64,000 nt of DNA from NCBI GenBank assembly GCA_963740905.1, contig CAVUFY010000004.1, forward strand, positions 387,735 through 451,734, in the 5' to 3' direction. This document shows, in pieces, positions 3,912 through 12,147 of the stretch (positions within the stretch are counted from its first letter, which is position 1; every line of letters starts with the position of its first letter). The notes below the pieces were generated by a model. It did no database searches, was not told where the DNA came from, and saw only the letters and a list, made by a program, of their open reading frames with translations. The stretch comes from an uncultured delta proteobacterium (GTDB lineage: Bacteria > Desulfobacterota > DSM-4660 > Desulfatiglandales > HGW-15). The position numbers and the translations under genes were made by a program.

Positions 3912-3933
3912 CAGGGGGCCCGAAGGCCCCCTG
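3912..3933. terminator. GC-rich hairpin between convergent genes (probable bidirectional terminator)
   Basis: CAGGGGGCC-CGAA-GGCCCCCTG: a perfect 9-bp stem with a tetraloop. On the minus strand it is followed by ATTTATTCCCGCTTTT and lies 33 nt after the fhs stop. Confidence 0.6.
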
Positions 3934-3965: not shown

Positions 3966-5729
3966 CTAGAACAGTCCCCTTACCTTGCCCGTCTTCACGT
4001 CCACGTCCACACGGCGGAAGGCCGGGTCGGAAGCGGTTCCGGGCATGAGGCTGATCGTTCCGGCGCAGGGGCAGAGGAACTTGGCGCCCGAGTAAATGAG
4101 CACGTCCCGGATGGGGAGGGTCCATCCCTTGGGAACGCCTTTCAGCGCGGGATCATGGGATAGACTCAAGTGGGTCTTCACCATCATGGTGGCGAACTCA
4201 TCGAACTTGGGATCCCCTTCGAGCATCTTCGCCTTGGCTTCGGCCTCGGGTGTCCAGGAAACCCCGTTCGCCCCGTACACCGTCTTCGCGATCTTCTCCA
4301 CCCTTTCGCGGAGTTTCATTTCCATGGGGTAAAGAAACTTGAACTTGGGCTTGGCCTCGCAGGCTTCCTTCACGGCCTCGGCAAGTTCGATGGCTCCATC
4401 GCCGCCTTTGGCCCAGTGCTCGGACACCGCGCATCGTGCGCCGGCCTCTTCGGCGTATTTCCTCACCATGGCAATTTCGGCCTTCGTATCCGTGTGGAAG
4501 CAGTTGATGCATACCACCGGATTCATGCCCGATTTGCGGATGGTGTTGATGTGGTGCACCATATTGGGAATTCCTGCTTCGAGGAGCTTGAAATTCTCTT
4601 TTGTGTACGCGGGATCGAGAGCGATACCGGCCACCACCTTGGGACCTCCGCCGTGCATCTTGAGGGCGCGGATGGTCGTGGTCAGCACCGACACATGGGG
4701 GGTGAGGCCGCTGTAACGGCACTTCACGTTCCAGAACTTCTCGAACCCGATGTCCGCCCCGAAACCGCTCTCCGTCACATGGTAGTCGAAAAGCTTGAGG
4801 CCCACGCGGTCGGCTATGATGGAAGACTGGCCGACGGCGATGTTCGCAAAAGGCCCGGCATGGACAAAGCATGGCTGATACTCGGCCGTGCTCATAAGAG
4901 TGGGGTTGATGGAGTCGACCATCCAGGCGGCCATTGCGCCGTCCACCTCGAGATCTCCGGTGGTCACGGGCTTGCCTGCCTTGTTGAAAGCCACGGTGAT
5001 CTCCCCAAGGCGTTTCCTGAGGTCCGCGAGGTCCGTGATGATCGCCAGGATGGCCATGATCTCGGATGAGACCGCGATCCCGAACTTGGATTGCATGGTG
5101 AAGCCGTCCTGCCGGCCCCCTAATCCGATGACGATGTTCCTCAAGCTCTGGGCGCAGAAGTCGATAATCCACCCCATTTCCACGCGGGTGGGATCCACGT
5201 CCAGCCTCTTCATCCTGGTCAGTCGCTTGAGTTGCTCGTCATTGTAGTTTCTTTCGTGCTGCATCCTTGCGGTGAGAGCGACCATGGCAAGGTTGTGGGC
5301 GTTCATGATGTTGTTGATGTCGCCTGTCAGCCCCATGGAGAATTCGGTCATGGGGATGATCAACGCGTTCCCGCCGCCCGCGGCTGTTCCCTTGATATTC
5401 ATGGTTGGGCCGCCGGAAGGCTGGCGAAGGGCGCCGCCCACACTCATCCCGAGCTTGCCCAGGCCTTCCATCAACCCGCACGAGGTAGTGCTTTTTCCTT
5501 CCCCGAGAGGCGTGGGGGTAATGGCGGTCACCTCGATGTACTTCCCGTCCTTCTTCTTCTCCAGACGTTTCATGACCTTCAGAAAGTCAATCCTCGCCAA
5601 CCTTCCGTGAGGGATCATTTCGTCTTTTTCGAGTCCCATTTTCTCGCGCCACTCGTCCGCAGACGGCATTTTCTTCTCGGCAGCTTCAGATATCTGCCAG
5701 TCCTTCATCTTTACCGCATCATAGGGCAT
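3966..5729 (-). CDS. fhs: Formate--tetrahydrofolate ligase
   Basis: Signature [12 protein letters not shown] and full-length similarity to Fhs. Start chosen at MPYD (ATG 5729), 9 nt after AGGAGG. The track ORF extends upstream to 5897 without support. Confidence 0.95.
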
Positions 5730-6040
5730 ACTCTTCATCCTCCTCTTCTTTCTGTGTTTTTTGTTGACCGCATAGCAAGTGTCATTCCGAACCCAAAAGG
5801 CAAACTTTCTTCGCTGACAGCCCGTCTCTTCGTTGCCGGACACTGGAAGCACCTTCGGACAGAGGCAGGCATTGCCCGCAGGACGGGATTTACCCAAGAA
5901 AACAACTCGTTAGATCTGATTACGGTGCTGACGGCCCGATCTTTCTGGAGAAGGGCACTTTTTCGTACCAAAAAAAAGATGGGGCGTCAAGCGTTTCCGA
6001 AACCCAAATGCGTCGGATTTCAGATATTTCCCTCAAACCC

Positions 6041-6241
6041 CTATCCTCCGGCGATCATCGGAATCAGAAAGATCTCCGCCCCGTCGGGAATGGCGGTTTT
6101 TTCAAAATTGGGCCTGGAAATCACACGACCGTTGATCTTAACCACAGCATAGGGATAAGAGTCGTTCAGCTCTTTCAGGAGACCCGCGACCGTCATTCCC
6201 TCTCGCCAGGTGCGCTCCTTTCCCCTGACCCTGATCATCAT
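6041..6241 (-). CDS. ThiS/MoaD-family ubiquitin-fold sulfur-carrier protein
   Basis: 66 aa ending in ...PMIAGG (C-terminal Gly-Gly). There is a 4-nt ATGA overlap with the AOR stop. Confidence 0.8.
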   Translation of the reverse strand: MMIRVRGKERTWREGMTVAGLLKELNDSYPYAVVKINGRVISRPNFEKTAIPDGAEIFLIPMIAGG

Positions 6242-8376
6242 TGCACTCCGTGAGTTCTTAGAAGATCGATCACCTCTGGGAAATCAAGGCCGAGCCGCTT
6301 CACCGTTTCCCTCTTCGGTATGCCATCGCGCGTCCAGCCCCGGCGCTCATAGACCGCATCTTTAAGAGTCTCATACTTCTCTTCCCTGATCTTCCTGAGA
6401 AGGGCGACTTTTTCTTCCGTGCTCCTGCCTGAGATGTCTGCCTTGTGCTCTTCCACGAGCTGCTTGTCGTATCTTTCTTTCCTGGACTCGTACTCGTCCG
6501 CAGTCACAGGCCCCATTGCACGGTAAGGGATGGCATCATACCGCCTGGTTCCGAACCCCATCTTCAGGTTGAAAATACGTTGAAAATTGTAAACCGCTTC
6601 ACTCATGGTGATCAAATCGTCAGGGCCGACCTTTCGCCCGGTGACGGCGCTGAAGTAACGCGCATACCATTCCACGTGCTTCGTGATTTTGGCCGGCTCC
6701 AGGGTCTCCTTGTTATCCTCAGGCACGACGTCGTTCCACGGCAGCTTGCACAGGCCGCACAATCCAAACCAGGTTCGAAACATGGGGAACCAGTGAAGGG
6801 CTTCGGCTTTCTGCTCAAAGGTGGGCAAGTAGTTGTCGACCATGTCCAGAAAGATCAGCCAGGCTTCGTCATGCTGCGGTCCCTTGAGAGCCAATCCGAA
6901 TCCGCCCTGCTGGGCAAGGGACTCCTTGGTCATGTACTCCGAGAACTCAAGACCCTTGGCCTCCATCCCGATATCCTGCATGATCGTCGGCTCCGCTCCA
7001 AAGTCCCGGCTAAAGATATCTTTCATTCTGCGAACGCCCTGGCCGACGATTTTCCCGAAGCCCTCGCCCCTCGCCATCTGGTGAAGCACTTCCAGGGCGC
7101 TCAGCCGGTTTCCGAAAGACAAATCCAGACCCGCCGTGTGCGTAGCATTGATCAACCCCATCTCGTAGCACTCCATGGCAAAGGCCGTCGCGGTCCCGAA
7201 GGAGATAGTGTCGATTCCGTAAGCGTCACAGTAAAAGTTGAGTTCCACGACAGTAAAAGGGTCAAAGATGCCCAGGTTGGACCCGCAGCCGGCGATGGTT
7301 TCGTACTCCGGCCCATCCACAAAGACCCTCCTGCCCTTATAAGGCCCGGTGAAGGGGATAAAGTCTTTGACGCCGTGAGAGCAGGCCATGGTGCAACCGA
7401 TCCAGCATCCGTCAAAGCCCTTGTCAAACATTCGTTTGTACACCTCCGCGCCCAGGTTGGGAGCCTGGGGGTGCCGGCCGTTGCGGAAATTGTGGACAGG
7501 AAGAAGGTCAAAGTCATTCATGATGGTTACCAGGTGGGTGGTTCCGATCCTGGCCATCTCGTTCTGCTCGGGATCAAGTTCCCCGATCTCACGGGAGTGA
7601 AGTCTGGCTACTTCCTTCAGGGCCGGTTCATCCGAAGGCTTGTTCGTGGACAGTGCCACAATGTTCCAACGCGCCACCACGGCCTTAACCCTCTTGTCCG
7701 CAAAAACGGTCCCGATGCCGCCCCGGCCTGCCTGCTTGTATCTTACTTTTTTCCGTCTCGTATCATACCAGCTGAAGTTGAGACATCCCATCAGCGTGTG
7801 TTTCGCACCGGGGCCGGTGGAAACCACGGAGATGTTGCGGGGATTGCCCTCCCCGAAATGCTCCGTAAGAAGCCCTGAGAGATCGTAGGCCGAATCAGGA
7901 AGCCCCTCTGCCTCCAGAATCCTTACCCGTTCCTCGATGCCGTCGACAAGGATGATGACGTCCGATCGGCTCTTTCCCTGGATTTCCAAGGCGTCGAAAC
8001 CCGAAAATTTCAGGTAAGGACCGAAGTGCCCGCCCACATTGGAGTCCATCACGGAGCCGGTGGTGGGAGAAAGGGATGTGACGATGCTCTTTCCCGATCC
8101 GGGATATATCGGTGTTCCCCCGAGGGGCCCGCAGGCGATGCAGATTTCGTTATCCGGGTCGTTCCACCGGGTCGTGCTTATCACCCCATTCCACAGAAGC
8201 CAGAGGTCAAACCCCTTTCCTCCGATGAAGAGGCGTTTCATTTTCTCGGTCACGGGCTTGATGGATACTTCCAACGAGGAAAGATGGACGTAAAGAGTTT
8301 GATTCGCGTAACCCTTTTCCATGGCCGGTCTGTCGTAATTCAGCGTCCTAATTTCCTTGAAGGCAATATCGCTCAT
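6238..8376 (-). CDS. aor: Aldehyde:ferredoxin oxidoreductase family (tungstopterin) enzyme
   Basis: AOR N-terminal domain (YANQTLYVHLS...FIGGKGF...) and AOR domains 2/3 (GPEYETIAGCGSNLGI, DTISFGTATAFAMECYE, GPQHDEAW). Start at MSDIAF (8376), 9 nt after GGAG. Confidence 0.9.
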   Translation of the reverse strand: MSDIAFKEIRTLNYDRPAMEKGYANQTLYVHLSSLEVSIKPVTEKMKRLFIGGKGFDLWLLWNGVISTTRWNDPDNEICIACGPLGGTPIYPGSGKSIVTSLSPTTGSVMDSNVGGHFGPYLKFSGFDALEIQGKSRSDVIILVDGIEERVRILEAEGLPDSAYDLSGLLTEHFGEGNPRNISVVSTGPGAKHTLMGCLNFSWYDTRRKKVRYKQAGRGGIGTVFADKRVKAVVARWNIVALSTNKPSDEPALKEVARLHSREIGELDPEQNEMARIGTTHLVTIMNDFDLLPVHNFRNGRHPQAPNLGAEVYKRMFDKGFDGCWIGCTMACSHGVKDFIPFTGPYKGRRVFVDGPEYETIAGCGSNLGIFDPFTVVELNFYCDAYGIDTISFGTATAFAMECYEMGLINATHTAGLDLSFGNRLSALEVLHQMARGEGFGKIVGQGVRRMKDIFSRDFGAEPTIMQDIGMEAKGLEFSEYMTKESLAQQGGFGLALKGPQHDEAWLIFLDMVDNYLPTFEQKAEALHWFPMFRTWFGLCGLCKLPWNDVVPEDNKETLEPAKITKHVEWYARYFSAVTGRKVGPDDLITMSEAVYNFQRIFNLKMGFGTRRYDAIPYRAMGPVTADEYESRKERYDKQLVEEHKADISGRSTEEKVALLRKIREEKYETLKDAVYERRGWTRDGIPKRETVKRLGLDFPEVIDLLRTHGVQ

Positions 8377-8437
8377 CGAGTCGGCTCCTTCGGTGTCTAT
8401 CCAGACATGGTGCACGGCAATACATTTCTTTGATTGT

Positions 8438-8479
8438 CTCTGCCTTGCACCGTGCGCCGTGCGCCTTGTGCCTTGTGCC
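8438..8479 (-). repeat. Six tandem heptamers in the intercistronic spacer
   Basis: On the transcript strand: GGCACAA GGCACAA GGCGCAC GGCGCAC GGTGCAA GGCAGAG. It lies between the FAD-oxidoreductase stop (8488) and the AOR start (8376). Confidence 0.85.
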
Positions 8480-8487
8480 GTCTATCT

Positions 8488-9648
8488 TTATTTAAGCGCT
8501 TCCTGCCCGCCGAATCTCCGGTAAGGGGAAAACCCTTCCAGAATAACTTTATCCTCATCTGTGCGTCTGTCCGTGATTAACCTGGCCACAACCTCGCCCA
8601 CGCCTGGCCCGAGCATAAAGCCCTGGCCGCACATGCCCGTGGCATGGATCAGTCCCTGAACTTCCTTGTTCCACCCCACCAGGGGAGATCCGTCAGGCGT
8701 CATTGGGTAAAGGCCCCGCCAGGTCCTCCTCACTCTCAGGTGCTTGAGCCTTGGCAGCAATTTCACCATCCTCGATCCCACTTGGGGCAGAAACACCGAG
8801 GTCTCCCGCTTATCGTTTCCCACAATGAGGGGTTCCGGGGTAATGCAAAAAACAACTTGACCCAGTTGGTTCTGATAGAAGTAGTAGTTTTTGGAATCGG
8901 GGCCCGGTCTCAAATCGACCACCATGCAGGTGAAGAAGGGCTTCACCGGTTCCGTGATGGCCGCTTCGTGCGAATCCGGGGTTACAGGCACATCCACTCC
9001 TGCGGTTTTGCACAGATCCCTTGAGTAAGGTCCCGCCGCATCCACTACGACAGGGGCCTCGTAGGTCCCGCTCTTCGCAGCGACCCCCAGTACCTTCCCC
9101 TCCCCCACCATGATTTTCTCTACCCTGTCCTTGAAAAGAAAACGAACGCCGAGCTCCCCGGCTCTCCGAAAGAAGGCATTGACAGCGCGAAGGGGAGAGG
9201 CTGAACCGTCGTCCGGTGAAATCGTGCCGCCAATAAGGCCTTCAGGGTTGATCCCTGGAACCACTTCGCGGATTCTCTCCGGGCCGACGAACTCAATGTC
9301 CAGTCCGTACTTCTTCTGTATCGGGAAAATGCTCTTGAGCGCCTTCTCTTCTTTTTCTCTGTAAACCGGAAAGGTGTAACCGCCCTTCAGCCACTCGATG
9401 TTGTCGCCGTATTTTTCCTTCCAGGTCGAAAAGATCCGGAGCGAGCCGAGGCAGGTGAGAATCTTGGCAGGATCAGAGTGAGTCGCCCTGATGCCGCCTA
9501 TGGCTTTCTTGTTCTCCCCCTGTCCGGGTGATGCGTTGTAATCCAGGACTAGAGTTTTCACTCCCATTTCGGCGAGTGCCACCGCAGTGGGAACGCCGAT
9601 TGAACCGGCGCCCACGATAATGACGTCATATTTTCCGCTGCTCACCAC
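8488..9648 (-). CDS. FAD-dependent oxidoreductase (DAO family; sarcosine/opine oxidase beta-like)
   Basis: N-terminal YDVIIVGAGSIGVPTAVALAE dinucleotide fold, 386 aa, and DAO-type C-terminus (HATGMCGQGFMLGPGVG). Confidence 0.85.
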   Translation of the reverse strand: MVSSGKYDVIIVGAGSIGVPTAVALAEMGVKTLVLDYNASPGQGENKKAIGGIRATHSDPAKILTCLGSLRIFSTWKEKYGDNIEWLKGGYTFPVYREKEEKALKSIFPIQKKYGLDIEFVGPERIREVVPGINPEGLIGGTISPDDGSASPLRAVNAFFRRAGELGVRFLFKDRVEKIMVGEGKVLGVAAKSGTYEAPVVVDAAGPYSRDLCKTAGVDVPVTPDSHEAAITEPVKPFFTCMVVDLRPGPDSKNYYFYQNQLGQVVFCITPEPLIVGNDKRETSVFLPQVGSRMVKLLPRLKHLRVRRTWRGLYPMTPDGSPLVGWNKEVQGLIHATGMCGQGFMLGPGVGEVVARLITDRRTDEDKVILEGFSPYRRFGGQEALK

Positions 9649-9674
9649 AACCTCTCCCTCCTGATACCTCCGAC

Positions 9675-11759
9675 CTAGTCCCCCTCCCCTCTCATCCCCG
9701 CGAGGATGCCCAGCGGCACCTCTACGAACAGAGGCCGATCAACCCTGTCCGTGACCTGTTCAAGGTCTACACCCTCCTCCTGAAACAGACGCCGGATCAT
9801 CGGCCCGCACGTCTTTGACCCGCAGGCACCCATGCCCGCTCTGTTCAGGGCCTTTAGCTGATTCATGTCCTTGACTCCTTCCCGAATCGCGGCCCGAATC
9901 TCTCCGGCCGTCACCCTTTCGCAGCGGCACACCACGGCCTCGTCAGGAGGGAGCTCCCGCTCATAGATCAGCGAAGGCTCGATCTGCTCTTCCTGTACCC
10001 AGATTCCCACCGCCCTTTTGGCCGCATCCTTCTCAACTTTGACCTGTACCAGCAGCGTACCCGGGTATTTCTTCGGGCTGGTGAGCACCCTCTCCACGGG
10101 ATAATTACCCAGGATCGCGCCCTCCACATCCGTGACAGGCACCCTGTGTCCCACTTCAACCTTCTCTCTCCACACTTCGTAGGGAAGGGTCACCGTAGGA
10201 TGTTCCGCATCCTTTCGATAATCCACCAGAGTAGCGGCAAGACCCGGGCAAATGTAGACACAACTCATGCAACCTTTGCAGAGTTTCACATCCATGATGT
10301 AGGGAAGACCCGTGATCTCATCCCTGTCGGTCTTGATCGCCCCCTCCGGGCAGACGGACGTGCAGGGGTTGCAGGGGACTTCCTGGGTACAATGAAATAT
10401 GGGCATGACCCCCTTTTCTTCACCGGGTTTCTCTCTCTCGATCACCGGGCCCGGTTTGGATTTGAGAACCCGTTCCTTGTCCTCCCACTCCCAGGGAATT
10501 TCTCCCGCAAAAAGCCCGAGGGACTTTGCTATCTTCAATCCCTCAATCTTTCCCGTAAACATCGCGGCGGAGGCCTCGGCGATCTCCTTTGCATCCCCGG
10601 CAGAGTGGACTTCCATGCCCCACTCCCTGGCTTTGGTGTAGAACTCGTTCACCTCCGCCAGCCCGACGGCGATGAGGACCGTGTCCACCGTAAAGGTCTT
10701 GTGCGTCCCCGGGACGACTTTCCACCGCGGGTCCAGGCAGGCAATGGTCACTTTTTCCACCTTCTCCCCGCCCGTCGCGGAAACCACCGTGTGGCTCGTG
10801 TAGATGGGCACGCCCAGCCTCTTAAGTTTGTCCGCATGGACTTTGTATCCCCCCACCTGGGAGAGCGCCTCCACAAGAGCGACAACTTCTATCCCCGCCT
10901 GAATCGCATGATAGCCCGCAATGAGGCCTACGTTGCCGCCCCCCACAATGAGGACCCGGTCTGAGGACTTGACAAGATCCCGATTGACCAGCGTCTGAAA
11001 TGCGCCGGCGCCGTAGATCCCCGGCAGGGTGTTGCCGGGAAAGGAGAGCATCTTCTCCCTTGCCCCTGTAGCCACGAGAAGCCTCTGGGGCTTGATCCTT
11101 CTGTACGTGTTCCCTTTCACCACACCCACGACGCGGTCCGAAAAAATGCCCACAGCGGTCGTATTGAGCCAGACCTCCACGGAATCCAGTGCTCTCACTT
11201 CTTCTTCGAGAATCCGGGCGATCTCAAACCCCCGGGTCCCGGCATGGGAGTCTTCCACGGAACCGAAGAACTTGTGTGTCTGGAGCACCAGTTTGCCTCC
11301 CGGCTTGCTCTTGTCATCCACGATGAGGGTGTCCACCCCGCGCTTTCCCATCTCGATGGCAGCCGAAAGCCCTGCCGGACCCGCGCCGAGGATAAGGACC
11401 TCCACAGCTCTGACAGGCGGCTCCTTCAGCAGAGGAGCGCGGTCATCATGAGGCAGTTCGGGCAGTCCTTCCAGGCTTGCCAATACCATGCCCGGCTTCA
11501 GGGAGGTCATGCACGCCTTGACCGGCAGTCCATCGGCGATAACCATGCACTGGGAACACTGGCCGTTGGCGCAGAACAGGCCCTGAGGGCTGTGATCTTT
11601 GGGATGATGACCCAGTATGCGGATGTCATTGGCCATGAGGGCCGATGAAATCATCTCTCCCTGGTAGCCTGTCAGGCTTTCCCCGTTCCAGGTAAATTCG
11701 ACCTCTTTTCTCTTGGGAATTTCCAGAACAGGATGTTTCTCGATTCTTCGCTTGTTCAT
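9675..11759 (-). CDS. Multi-cluster NAD(P)/FAD oxidoreductase (sarcosine/opine oxidase alpha-like, without the folate domain)
   Basis: N-terminal 2Fe-2S-type domain (FCANGQCSQCMVIADG..KAC). Two GxGxxG folds (LILGAGPAGLSAA; LIVGGGNVGL). Two ferredoxin-type motifs (CNPCTSVCPEGAI; CKGCMSCVYICPG). BFD-like C-terminus (VCRCERVTAGEI...CGSKTCGPM). ATG 11759 is preferred to TTG 11768. Confidence 0.8.
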   Translation of the reverse strand: MNKRRIEKHPVLEIPKRKEVEFTWNGESLTGYQGEMISSALMANDIRILGHHPKDHSPQGLFCANGQCSQCMVIADGLPVKACMTSLKPGMVLASLEGLPELPHDDRAPLLKEPPVRAVEVLILGAGPAGLSAAIEMGKRGVDTLIVDDKSKPGGKLVLQTHKFFGSVEDSHAGTRGFEIARILEEEVRALDSVEVWLNTTAVGIFSDRVVGVVKGNTYRRIKPQRLLVATGAREKMLSFPGNTLPGIYGAGAFQTLVNRDLVKSSDRVLIVGGGNVGLIAGYHAIQAGIEVVALVEALSQVGGYKVHADKLKRLGVPIYTSHTVVSATGGEKVEKVTIACLDPRWKVVPGTHKTFTVDTVLIAVGLAEVNEFYTKAREWGMEVHSAGDAKEIAEASAAMFTGKIEGLKIAKSLGLFAGEIPWEWEDKERVLKSKPGPVIEREKPGEEKGVMPIFHCTQEVPCNPCTSVCPEGAIKTDRDEITGLPYIMDVKLCKGCMSCVYICPGLAATLVDYRKDAEHPTVTLPYEVWREKVEVGHRVPVTDVEGAILGNYPVERVLTSPKKYPGTLLVQVKVEKDAAKRAVGIWVQEEQIEPSLIYERELPPDEAVVCRCERVTAGEIRAAIREGVKDMNQLKALNRAGMGACGSKTCGPMIRRLFQEEGVDLEQVTDRVDRPLFVEVPLGILAGMRGEGD

Positions 11760-12147
11760 GACTGTCAAACCCCTTGGATAGCCTTTTGGGTTAACGATTT
11801 CAGTAAGTTAGAATGGTTAGATTAACAGGATATATCAAAATGTCAAGTTTCGAGCACCCTATGTGTGCGATGAAAACGGAGGATTTCTTGGCACAAAGAG
11901 AGAATGTTCATCTATGTGAGGGGCAGGCACGTGCAGATATGTTCTCGCTACAGTTTTCCGAGGGAATGAAGCAAATGAATTCAACGGGGTTATCTGACAA
12001 AGCAATAGCGGAAAGACAGCAACAAGGGACTGAGACGTATCATTTAGTTCTCCGCGGTCAGAAAATCTATCATGCCCAACTCCTTGCGGAGGAGGAAAAA
12101 GGCTTTATAGTGTTTTAGAAATTGAACCATGGAAAGGAGATGGAACC

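Follow-up and report, generated by a model that had tools for sequence, protein, structure and literature searches.

Schut in 2021 reportedly resolved the tungsten-containing oxidoreductases (WORs) into a tree of 92 clades. A scheme published by Putumbaka et al. (2026, PMC13328260; here and below we refer to the accessible part of that paper and its supplement) sorts WORs into Classes I–V by their subunits. One bacterial representative, the tungsten-dependent aldehyde ferredoxin oxidoreductase (AOR) of Aromatoleum aromaticum (AorABC, a Class III WOR; 8C0Z), shares its gene cluster with a MoaD-like gene and the gene of an FAD/NAD-binding protein; it has a separate four-cluster polyferredoxin, WorS, forms nanowire filaments and uses its flavoprotein only to relay aldehyde electrons to NAD+. 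The dye-linked L-proline dehydrogenases (PDHs) of Thermococcales comprise the alpha4beta4 PDH1 (PH1363/PH1364, 1Y56) and an alpha-beta-gamma-delta PDH2 type, found in Thermococcus profundus. To our knowledge, no linkage of these archaeal enzymes to an AOR has been reported, and we know of no physiological acceptor for them. Here we describe a locus in which components of both kinds are joined. It lies in a stretch of 64,000 nt (hereafter the window) from an uncultured delta proteobacterium (Desulfobacterota; Desulfatiglandales; HGW-15; assembly GCA_963740905.1, CAVUFY010000004.1:387,735-451,734), whose genome assembly measures 5.29 Mb and is 99% complete. Five minus-strand genes encode, in this order, an iron-sulfur flavoprotein (alpha), its FAD-dependent partner (beta), a member of the AOR family, a small ThiS-family protein (WorX) and formate-tetrahydrofolate ligase (fhs).

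We consider it reasonably probable that the cluster represents a module for the catabolism of proline (imino acids) without oxygen, consisting of two consecutive enzymes and a maturation factor. Each kind of component is known, and the combination, an AOR-family enzyme joined to a PDH-type dehydrogenase, appears to be a new variant; full-text literature searches retrieved no paper joining aldehyde ferredoxin oxidoreductase with proline or pyrroline-5-carboxylate (P5C), or with sarcosine oxidase. Gene content, domains, motifs, homology, synteny and distribution were computed here, and it is from these that we infer substrates, reaction direction and electron carriers. Genomes are denoted by G-numbers (G000 being the window's own, with the window at G000:C4:387735-451734), the loci compared by L-numbers, and the window's own family as f1.

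The flavoprotein pair resembles archaeal proline dehydrogenases

The five open reading frames (ORFs) and their domains are found at the positions and in the order that an earlier note on this DNA had described. Successive genes are 26, 111, -4 and 311 nt apart, and terminator prediction gave no candidate site within the block, the gap between WorX and fhs included. Alpha (9675-11768, minus strand, as are all features below unless stated) encodes 697 amino acids (aa) when read from a TTG codon, or 694 aa from the likely start, an ATG at 11759. In its product, an N-terminal 2Fe-2S domain (Pfam Fer2_4, residues 21-98) is fused to an FAD/NAD(P)-binding reductase (Pyr_redox_2, 123-389; Pyr_redox, 271-342), an inserted 2x[4Fe-4S] ferredoxin (Fer4, 460-509, a 4Fe-4S dicluster) and a BFD-like 2Fe-2S domain (Fer2_BFD, 612-664). 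It carries the Rossmann motifs GAGPAG and GGGNVG, the pattern Cx4Cx2Cx11C within Fer2_4 and CxC...Cx4C within the BFD domain. Beta (8488-9648; 386 aa) is a protein of the DAO family (Pfam DAO, E 4e-57).

The best match of beta in the Protein Data Bank (PDB) is the beta subunit of the Pyrococcus horikoshii L-proline dehydrogenase (1y56_B, E 2.9e-53), with residues 6-381 aligned to 5-372 of that chain. The runner-up, a glycine oxidase, follows at E 2e-22, dimethylglycine oxidase and SoxB likewise trail at E 1e-22 or weaker, and the proline enzyme stands about 30 orders of magnitude ahead of any sarcosine or glycine oxidase. To judge from this homology, beta is a probable catalytic L-proline (imino-acid) dehydrogenase. 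Alpha matches 2gag_A (E 1e-19) and 1y56_A (E 4e-18), its similarity to SoxA and to chain A of 1Y56 being confined to the N-terminal 2Fe-2S and reductase part, and its orthologues in relatives share 67–84% identity. In fused form it corresponds to three parts of the archaeal four-subunit PDH, namely delta, alpha and gamma, the ferredoxin-like and small Fe-S subunits appearing here as domains of one chain. The archaeal enzymes thus have in common with the window pair the N-terminal 2Fe-2S segment, the FAD/nucleotide-binding reductase core and a beta subunit homologous over its full length (PH1364). The window pair differs in belonging to a mesophilic bacterium, in having all but beta in a single 694-aa chain with an extra BFD-like domain, and in its genomic link to an AOR-family enzyme.

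Identity with heterotetrameric sarcosine oxidase (SoxABGD) finds no support in the profile scores. Alpha reaches 159.8 bits against soxA (TIGR01372, cut-off 1164), over profile positions 169-422 only, and the soxB profile (TIGR01373, cut-off 529) gives 111.6 bits; neither Pfam nor NCBIfam profile searches matched a folate-binding GCV_T domain in alpha. Pfam, NCBIfam and PDB matches agree with the earlier description of the partners as an alpha/beta pair of the sarcosine/opine/proline-dehydrogenase type that lacks the folate domain.

Watanabe et al. (PMC4575208) described a family of heteromeric flavin/Fe-S dehydrogenases acting on opines, D-hydroxyproline, glycine (HcnABC) and, in archaea, L-proline, whose hallmarks are a pair of ADP-binding motifs and [2Fe-2S] motifs of two kinds; both sets are present in alpha. 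The cyanide synthase HcnABC, the opine dehydrogenase OdhABC/OoxAB and D-hydroxyproline dehydrogenase are built from the same 2Fe-2S, Pyr_redox_2/BFD and DAO modules (PMC4575208), the first two of which are fused, with a ferredoxin domain added, in the window. None of these enzymes is linked to an AOR, and they release no aldehyde but HCN or, in the case of the D-hydroxyproline and opine enzymes, keto-acid imines; the L-proline type is the only one in the family whose product is equivalent to an aldehyde.

Split alpha-like paralogues of 43–46% identity, each with one in-frame TGA, were also noticed (L118 in G035:C7, 8493-10383; G004:C26:16976-18073; G010:C240:5912-7009; G018:C33:14748-15533). 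They may be selenocysteine-containing relatives of alpha.

A long AOR and its maturation factor

The AOR gene, which encodes the catalytic WorL chain (6238-8376; 712 aa), is separated from beta by a spacer of 111 nt (8377-8487). A longer ORF starting with GTG extends to 8415; since orthologues measure 712–713 aa, translation probably begins at the ATG at 8376. The AFOR_N (PF02730; 160.6 bits, E 5e-47) and AFOR_C (PF01314; 333.2 bits, E 3e-99) domains score far above their cut-offs. The cluster motif GCWIGCTMAC (CxxxCxxxC) aligns with the Cys288/291/295 motif of the AOR of Pyrococcus furiosus (PfAOR), the glutamate of GPEYE and the histidine of QHDEAW are conserved as equivalents of Glu313 and His448, pterin motifs are present, and the fourth cysteine of the [4Fe-4S] cluster appears to lie in the motif GLCKLPW. 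The pterin-bound metal is predicted to be tungsten or molybdenum. The protein shares its AFOR domains, cluster cysteines, pterin motifs and catalytic Glu/His pair with PfAOR (1AOR) and with the formaldehyde ferredoxin oxidoreductase (FOR) of P. furiosus (1B25), and differs from both in being about 100 aa longer and only about 30% identical.

Among its PDB matches, 1aor (E 6e-50) and 1b25 (E 9e-49) are followed by others down to E 1e-21, the weakest listed, and its identity to PfAOR, FOR, AorB, WOR5 and BamB alike is about 30%. Scores against the NCBIfam equivalogs YdhV (96.9 bits, cut-off 868) and GAPOR (25.7 bits, cut-off 1300) are below threshold. More than 8000 homologues were retrieved, the top 120 sharing 74–89% identity, and a search of 1.8 billion cluster representatives returned a handful of proteins of 700–740 aa scoring 426–1239 bits, ordinary AORs of about 600 aa remaining under 300. 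Set against the AOR, FOR, GAPOR, WOR4/5, BamB and AorB groups, the protein stands apart in both the tree and the similarity search and falls in no characterized clade, which points to a distinct clade of long AORs without a characterized member. The window's genome encodes nine AOR paralogues, eight of them besides the one discussed here. Two others contain an in-frame stop codon, TGA in one and TAG in the other (G000:C15:227068-228297 and G000:C16:118406-119512); the one bearing TGA may be a BamB-type selenoprotein or a pseudogene.

WorX (6041-6241; 66 aa) is a ThiS/MoaD-like beta-grasp protein with a GG terminus (Pfam ThiS, E 6e-11; TIGR01683, 41.5 bits, cut-off 37.45). Its start overlaps the AOR stop by 4 nt (ATGA), an overlap through which it is translationally coupled to the AOR, and it follows the AOR in most orthologous loci. 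We adopt the name given to the ThiS-like gene beside WorL in PMC13328260, according to which such a gene follows WorL in many Class I WORs as well. WorX is probably a maturation factor for the pterin cofactor and not a subunit.

The flavoprotein partnership of the window fits none of Classes I–V as set out in the accessible part of PMC13328260. Class III enzymes combine WorL with WorS and WorN; between beta and the AOR of the window there is no WorS, only the 111-nt spacer, and among relatives a WorS-like gene occurs only in those from Chloroflexota and Clostridia. The partners differ from those in AorABC, as had been proposed, in that a separate polyferredoxin is missing and the flavoprotein is of another type, the pair being itself a predicted substrate dehydrogenase; the AOR is distantly related to that of Aromatoleum (E 8e-40). 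In the accessible supplement of PMC13328260, WorL genes of clade 7 encode 712–718 aa, and in Thermotalea metallivorans and a Clostridiaceae bacterium the genes succeed one another as Fer2_4, Pyr_redox_2, Fer4, SO_alpha_A3/BFD, DAO, Fer4, WorL, ThiS, which is the module of the window in split form. Other clade-7 genes listed there adjoin DAO, ornithine cyclodeaminase (OCD) and aminotransferase genes, or lie among genes for glutamate dehydrogenase and 2-oxoglutarate oxidoreductase. The same source places clade 7 in Class I/II and, in its accessible part, proposes no function for it; no Desulfobacterales entries were found in that part of the supplement. Judged by length and neighbourhood alone, the AOR of the window appears to belong to clade 7.

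The partnership is old and facultative

Relatives of family f1 repeat the order alpha-beta-AOR-WorX-fhs at 67–92% identity per protein (G018, G003 and G007, and partially, on short contigs, G017, G008 and G001), while the outer flanks of the block differ among them; G035, from another family, has alpha-beta-AOR-WorX without fhs. An orthologue scan with one genome per species yielded 80 AOR loci outside the window's family, with 58–75% identity, from Desulfobacterales, Bathyarchaeia, Chloroflexota, Bipolaricaulota and others. The co-directional order alpha-beta-AOR-WorX occurs in at least 23 loci from many Desulfobacterota genera. In the tree, the Desulfobacterota AORs form a clade of 40 rows with 100% support, in 15 of whose loci alpha/beta directly precedes the AOR in the same direction; in four it lies close by in a different orientation, and in 11 it is absent within 8–10 kb. 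The spacer between beta and the AOR is highly variable across orthologous loci (14–486 nt), so any element within it is not broadly conserved.

Each partner also occurs alone. Whole-genome checks found an AOR without any alpha in at least six genomes, and alpha-beta-fhs stands without AOR and WorX in G002 (L121, 1625-7116), G009 (L122, 6159-12033) and G013 (L113, 7060-12339), with gaps of 231–508 nt between beta and fhs; genome searches of these three gave no AOR orthologue at the threshold used and no proC. The co-conservation of the flavoprotein pair and the AOR, which the earlier note had made a condition of its proposal, is therefore seen in many genera but is not obligatory: the partnership is frequent and old, and facultative. 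Because it is facultative, two consecutive steps of a pathway fit the distribution better than a single hard-wired complex.

Gene neighbourhoods converge on glutamate semialdehyde

Every ORF lying no more than 8 kb from one of the 80 AORs was included in a clustering, and representatives were scanned against Pfam. AOR orthologues with informative neighbours span 58–80% identity and come from Desulfobacterota, Chloroflexota and Bathyarchaeia; contexts of distant representatives of the clade lay mostly on contigs too short to inform, one member of 47% identity having an Aminotran_3 gene 22 nt upstream. A gene for P5C reductase (ProC; P5CR_dimer) is directly upstream and co-directional in four loci (L026, L037, L053, L066), divergent in two from Bathyarchaeota (L068, L070), and adjoins the AOR in G039 and G020. 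OCD is encoded near the cluster in L030, L040, L045, L046, G164 and G282, the last two having the orders GntR, alpha, beta, proC, OCD and alpha, beta, proC, OCD, respectively. Class-III aminotransferases lie near the AOR in L040, L045 and the Chloroflexota loci L079 and L085, and an M24 peptidase of the prolidase/creatinase type in L086 and L093. Further recurrent neighbours are a second DAO enzyme, GntR/FCD regulators, Liv-type binding proteins and ABC transporters.

Proline and P5C/glutamate semialdehyde are the meeting point of proline dehydrogenase, ornithine delta-aminotransferase, OCD, ProC and prolidase. No other aldehyde is shared by these settings, and P5C/glutamate semialdehyde is the substrate that we propose for the AOR. 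The GntR/FCD regulators and Liv-type transporters that flank many loci indicate substrate-induced catabolism.

Two observations concern individual neighbours. In Desulfobacula-type loci (L051, L055 and L057–L060) AOR-WorX comes directly after yggT-divIVA-pilT, where L026, L037 and L053 have proC-AOR-WorX; in the three such genomes checked (L055, L057, L058) proC is located elsewhere. The window's own genome encodes, after a glycogen-phosphorylase-like gene, a class-III aminotransferase (G000:C6:318135-319460) that is 73.5% identical to the one beside alpha/beta-AOR in L045 and could supply glutamate semialdehyde from ornithine.

A proposed route from proline to glutamate

On the reading that we favour, alpha/beta would act as a fused bacterial dye-linked L-proline dehydrogenase, a role suggested by homology, and would oxidize L-proline to P5C, electrons passing from the FAD of beta to the flavin and Fe-S chain of alpha. 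P5C would open spontaneously by hydrolysis to glutamate-5-semialdehyde, which the AOR, to go by the gene neighbourhoods in several phyla, would oxidize to glutamate, handing low-potential electrons to ferredoxin via its single [4Fe-4S] cluster; WorX would mature its pterin cofactor. The overall chemistry (proline to P5C/glutamate semialdehyde to glutamate) would equal that of PutA, a TIM-barrel quinone-linked flavoenzyme joined to an NAD-dependent aldehyde dehydrogenase, with no homology in either half. The AOR would take over the part that the NAD-dependent P5C dehydrogenase plays in PutA, and the reducing power of the aldehyde would be saved. Alpha/beta and the AOR would be coupled through the metabolite and perhaps through ferredoxin; a single complex is not necessary, because each occurs alone in some genomes.

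Several points weigh against this proposal. The genome encodes a PutA-type Pro_dh domain in a 1307-aa frame and could in principle do without a second route for proline. Electrons from proline, at about -120 mV, require an acceptor. AORs without alpha and alpha-beta-fhs blocks without an AOR exist, as described above. The adjacency of proC in Desulfobacterales is partly an insertion beside the housekeeping pilT-yggT-proC block, and a proC gene adjoining a proline-oxidizing enzyme looks futile. Finally, comparably similar members of the beta family use opines, D-hydroxyproline or glycine, and an opine dehydrogenase that branches near the archaeal L-proline dehydrogenase group is inactive on proline (PMC4575208).

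A more speculative extension, which we regard as improbable though worth stating, is that alpha/beta and the AOR are electron-confurcating, electrons from proline and from the AOR's ferredoxin being joined at the flavins and Fe-S centres of alpha, such that proline + 2 NAD+ would give glutamate + 2 NADH without a quinone. Electrons from proline alone, at about -120 mV, cannot reduce NAD+. The scheme is allowed by alpha, since it has an NAD(P)-type Rossmann fold and a ferredoxin-like domain.

Alternative readings

A biosynthetic direction, in which alpha/beta would reduce P5C in place of ProC, driven by NAD(P)H or ferredoxin, and the AOR might use reduced ferredoxin to convert glutamate to the semialdehyde, so that proline could be made without ATP, is unlikely in our estimation, but the distribution of proC gives it some substance. 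The window's genome has no proC: the best TIGR00112 score is 30 bits, tblastn with ten ProC sequences found no match, and an intact obg-proB-proA is kept. The sole weak TIGR00112 match lies on a ketopantoate-reductase-like ORF, and a divergent ProC was rejected on this ground. Across this genome and 40 relatives (41 genomes), alpha is present and ProC absent in 13, both are present in two (in both of which proC adjoins the cluster), both are absent in two, and ProC occurs without alpha in 24; over the phylum ProC is found in 285 of 301 genomes. Ten of the 13 genomes with alpha and without ProC retain proA, and G035 and the Thermoflexia genome G343 add two further lineages of this kind. G002, G009 and G013, which lack ProC and have lost the AOR, still have alpha/beta, and proC-AOR-WorX operons exist. 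Against this, the correlation may mostly go back to a single ancestral event within one subclade, alpha/beta and proC occur together in many other genomes, the GntR regulators and uptake transporters suggest catabolism, and proBA makes a supply of semialdehyde by the AOR unnecessary. The exact proC slot, moreover, is filled by another protein. Replacement of ProC by alpha/beta was downgraded to a minor rival in view of this protein and of the frequent co-occurrence of alpha/beta with proC.

The protein in question is a Rossmann-type protein of 241 aa from an uncharacterized family (G000:C20:185817-186542; PF27252, AF_1314_C) encoded immediately upstream of yggT(-yggU), and it is a candidate non-orthologous P5C reductase. 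PF27252 occupies the same slot in other, metagenomic genomes (L129:5001-5714, L131:5001-5720, L133:5001-5696), and the order dnaG-rpoD-NIF3-CT398-[PF27252]-yggT recurs in other genomes. Its 675 homologues are nearly all labelled 'hypothetical protein' or nameless.

Of similarly low probability is a different imino or amino acid, with alpha/beta acting on L-pipecolate, hydroxyproline, an opine or another secondary amine and the AOR on, for example, alpha-aminoadipate, succinate or glutarate semialdehyde. The substrate range of the dehydrogenase family shifts easily (PMC4575208), the class-III aminotransferases beside members of the AOR clade could make several omega-semialdehydes, and clade-7 WorL genes occur among genes for 2-oxoglutarate:ferredoxin oxidoreductase, glutamate dehydrogenase and aminotransferases (accessible part of PMC13328260). 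The proC, OCD and prolidase-like neighbours are, however, specific to proline and ornithine, and D-hydroxyproline or opine dehydrogenases, which yield keto-acid imines by established chemistry (PMC4575208), would leave the AOR without a substrate.

The fifth gene bears on a reading centred on one-carbon (C1) metabolism. Fhs (3966-5729; 587 aa; PF01268, 716.9 bits; PRK13507, NF010032, 1086 bits, cut-off 938) also lies within an ORF of 643 aa that differs only in beginning at an upstream TTG, and it is present in a single copy, tblastn across the genome giving one match. Directly 3' of it, a strong intrinsic-terminator-like hairpin (3912-3933; nine pairs, eight of them G-C, then a T-rich tail) closes the co-directional block. 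The 311-nt spacer between WorX and fhs contains, as the earlier note had pointed out, a possible promoter (5962-5990): TTGACG (5990-5985) and TACGAA (5967-5962) are separated by 17 nt. The consensus scan did not call this element. TTGACG-N17-TACGA is nevertheless kept in four of five genera aligned (the window, G001, G017 and G008), the rest of the spacer diverging, and spacers before fhs are always long (314–986 nt). A ZTP or tetrahydrofolate (THF) riboswitch in the WorX-fhs spacer was rejected, the Rfam search of this spacer giving no family match. Fhs adjoins the cluster in nine relatives (G001, G002, G003, G007, G008, G009, G013, G017 and G018), representing nine genera of f1 including the window's own, and is found beside alpha/beta also where AOR-WorX is missing (G002, G009, G013). 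Outside the family it is next to the cluster in none of the 80 AOR loci; the only comparable case among them is a Chloroflexota locus (L104), where an fhs of 51% identity lies some 3.7 kb upstream of the AOR.

A C1 pathway would have alpha/beta demethylate sarcosine or another N-methyl amine without folate to give formaldehyde, the AOR act as a formaldehyde:ferredoxin oxidoreductase, and Fhs produce 10-formyl-THF for the Wood-Ljungdahl pathway. It could draw on the block alpha-beta-(AOR-WorX)-fhs being kept in the nine f1 relatives while outer flanks differ, on the folate-free alpha, on the lack of a predicted terminator between WorX and fhs, and on AOR scores almost equal against the FOR and AOR of P. 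furiosus. A C1 role is still unlikely, since the adjacency of fhs is confined to the family and persists without the AOR, and since the long spacer before fhs provides this gene with its own conserved promoter-like element. The fhs of L104 is distant, alpha/beta orthologues elsewhere adjoin proC, OCD, aminotransferase, GntR and Liv genes instead of C1 genes, fhs is a single housekeeping copy, and beta is much closer to proline dehydrogenase than to SoxB. Read-through transcription into fhs is conceivable, yet fhs is probably an independently promoted housekeeping C1 gene in lineage-specific synteny with the cluster, and the tie to formate and C1 metabolism that the earlier note had drawn finds no support and is probably wrong. 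The decayed gcvH to which it had also pointed is real: a 79-aa ORF on the plus strand (799-1038), about 3 kb from fhs, matches GCV_H positions 50-119 of 122 (E 1e-19). The sequence around this truncated remnant is decayed, and no conclusion on function follows from it.

That there is no functional link at all, the AOR being a general aldehyde-detoxifying Class I WOR beside an unrelated flavoprotein dehydrogenase, might be argued from the occurrence of each partner without the other, from the filing of clade 7 under Class I/II in the accessible part of PMC13328260 and from the 14–486-nt range of beta-AOR spacers, but is very improbable given the co-directional adjacency in at least 23 loci of several families, the split form in Clostridia and independent neighbours in other phyla that indicate the same metabolite.

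Implications

Proline oxidation by alpha/beta and the AOR, should it be correct, would concern a widespread group of enzymes: the AOR clade, with more than 8000 homologues, spans Desulfobacterota, Chloroflexota, Bathyarchaeia and Clostridia, and clade 7 is abundant in gut genomes according to the accessible part of PMC13328260. P5C/glutamate semialdehyde as substrate and a PDH-type partner would give this clade a role and would add a class of subunit or partner beyond the current Class I–V scheme. If confurcation were to apply, the system would be a WOR class of its own and would show flavin-based confurcation of a new type, with lactate dehydrogenase/Etf as its analogue, and the same reversible complex could double as P5C reductase in the proC-less genomes of the window's family. 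From the favoured reading one could also derive a possible physiological function of the dye-linked proline dehydrogenases of archaea, and it would explain how strict anaerobes oxidize proline and ornithine to glutamate with the electrons of the aldehyde kept as reduced ferredoxin.

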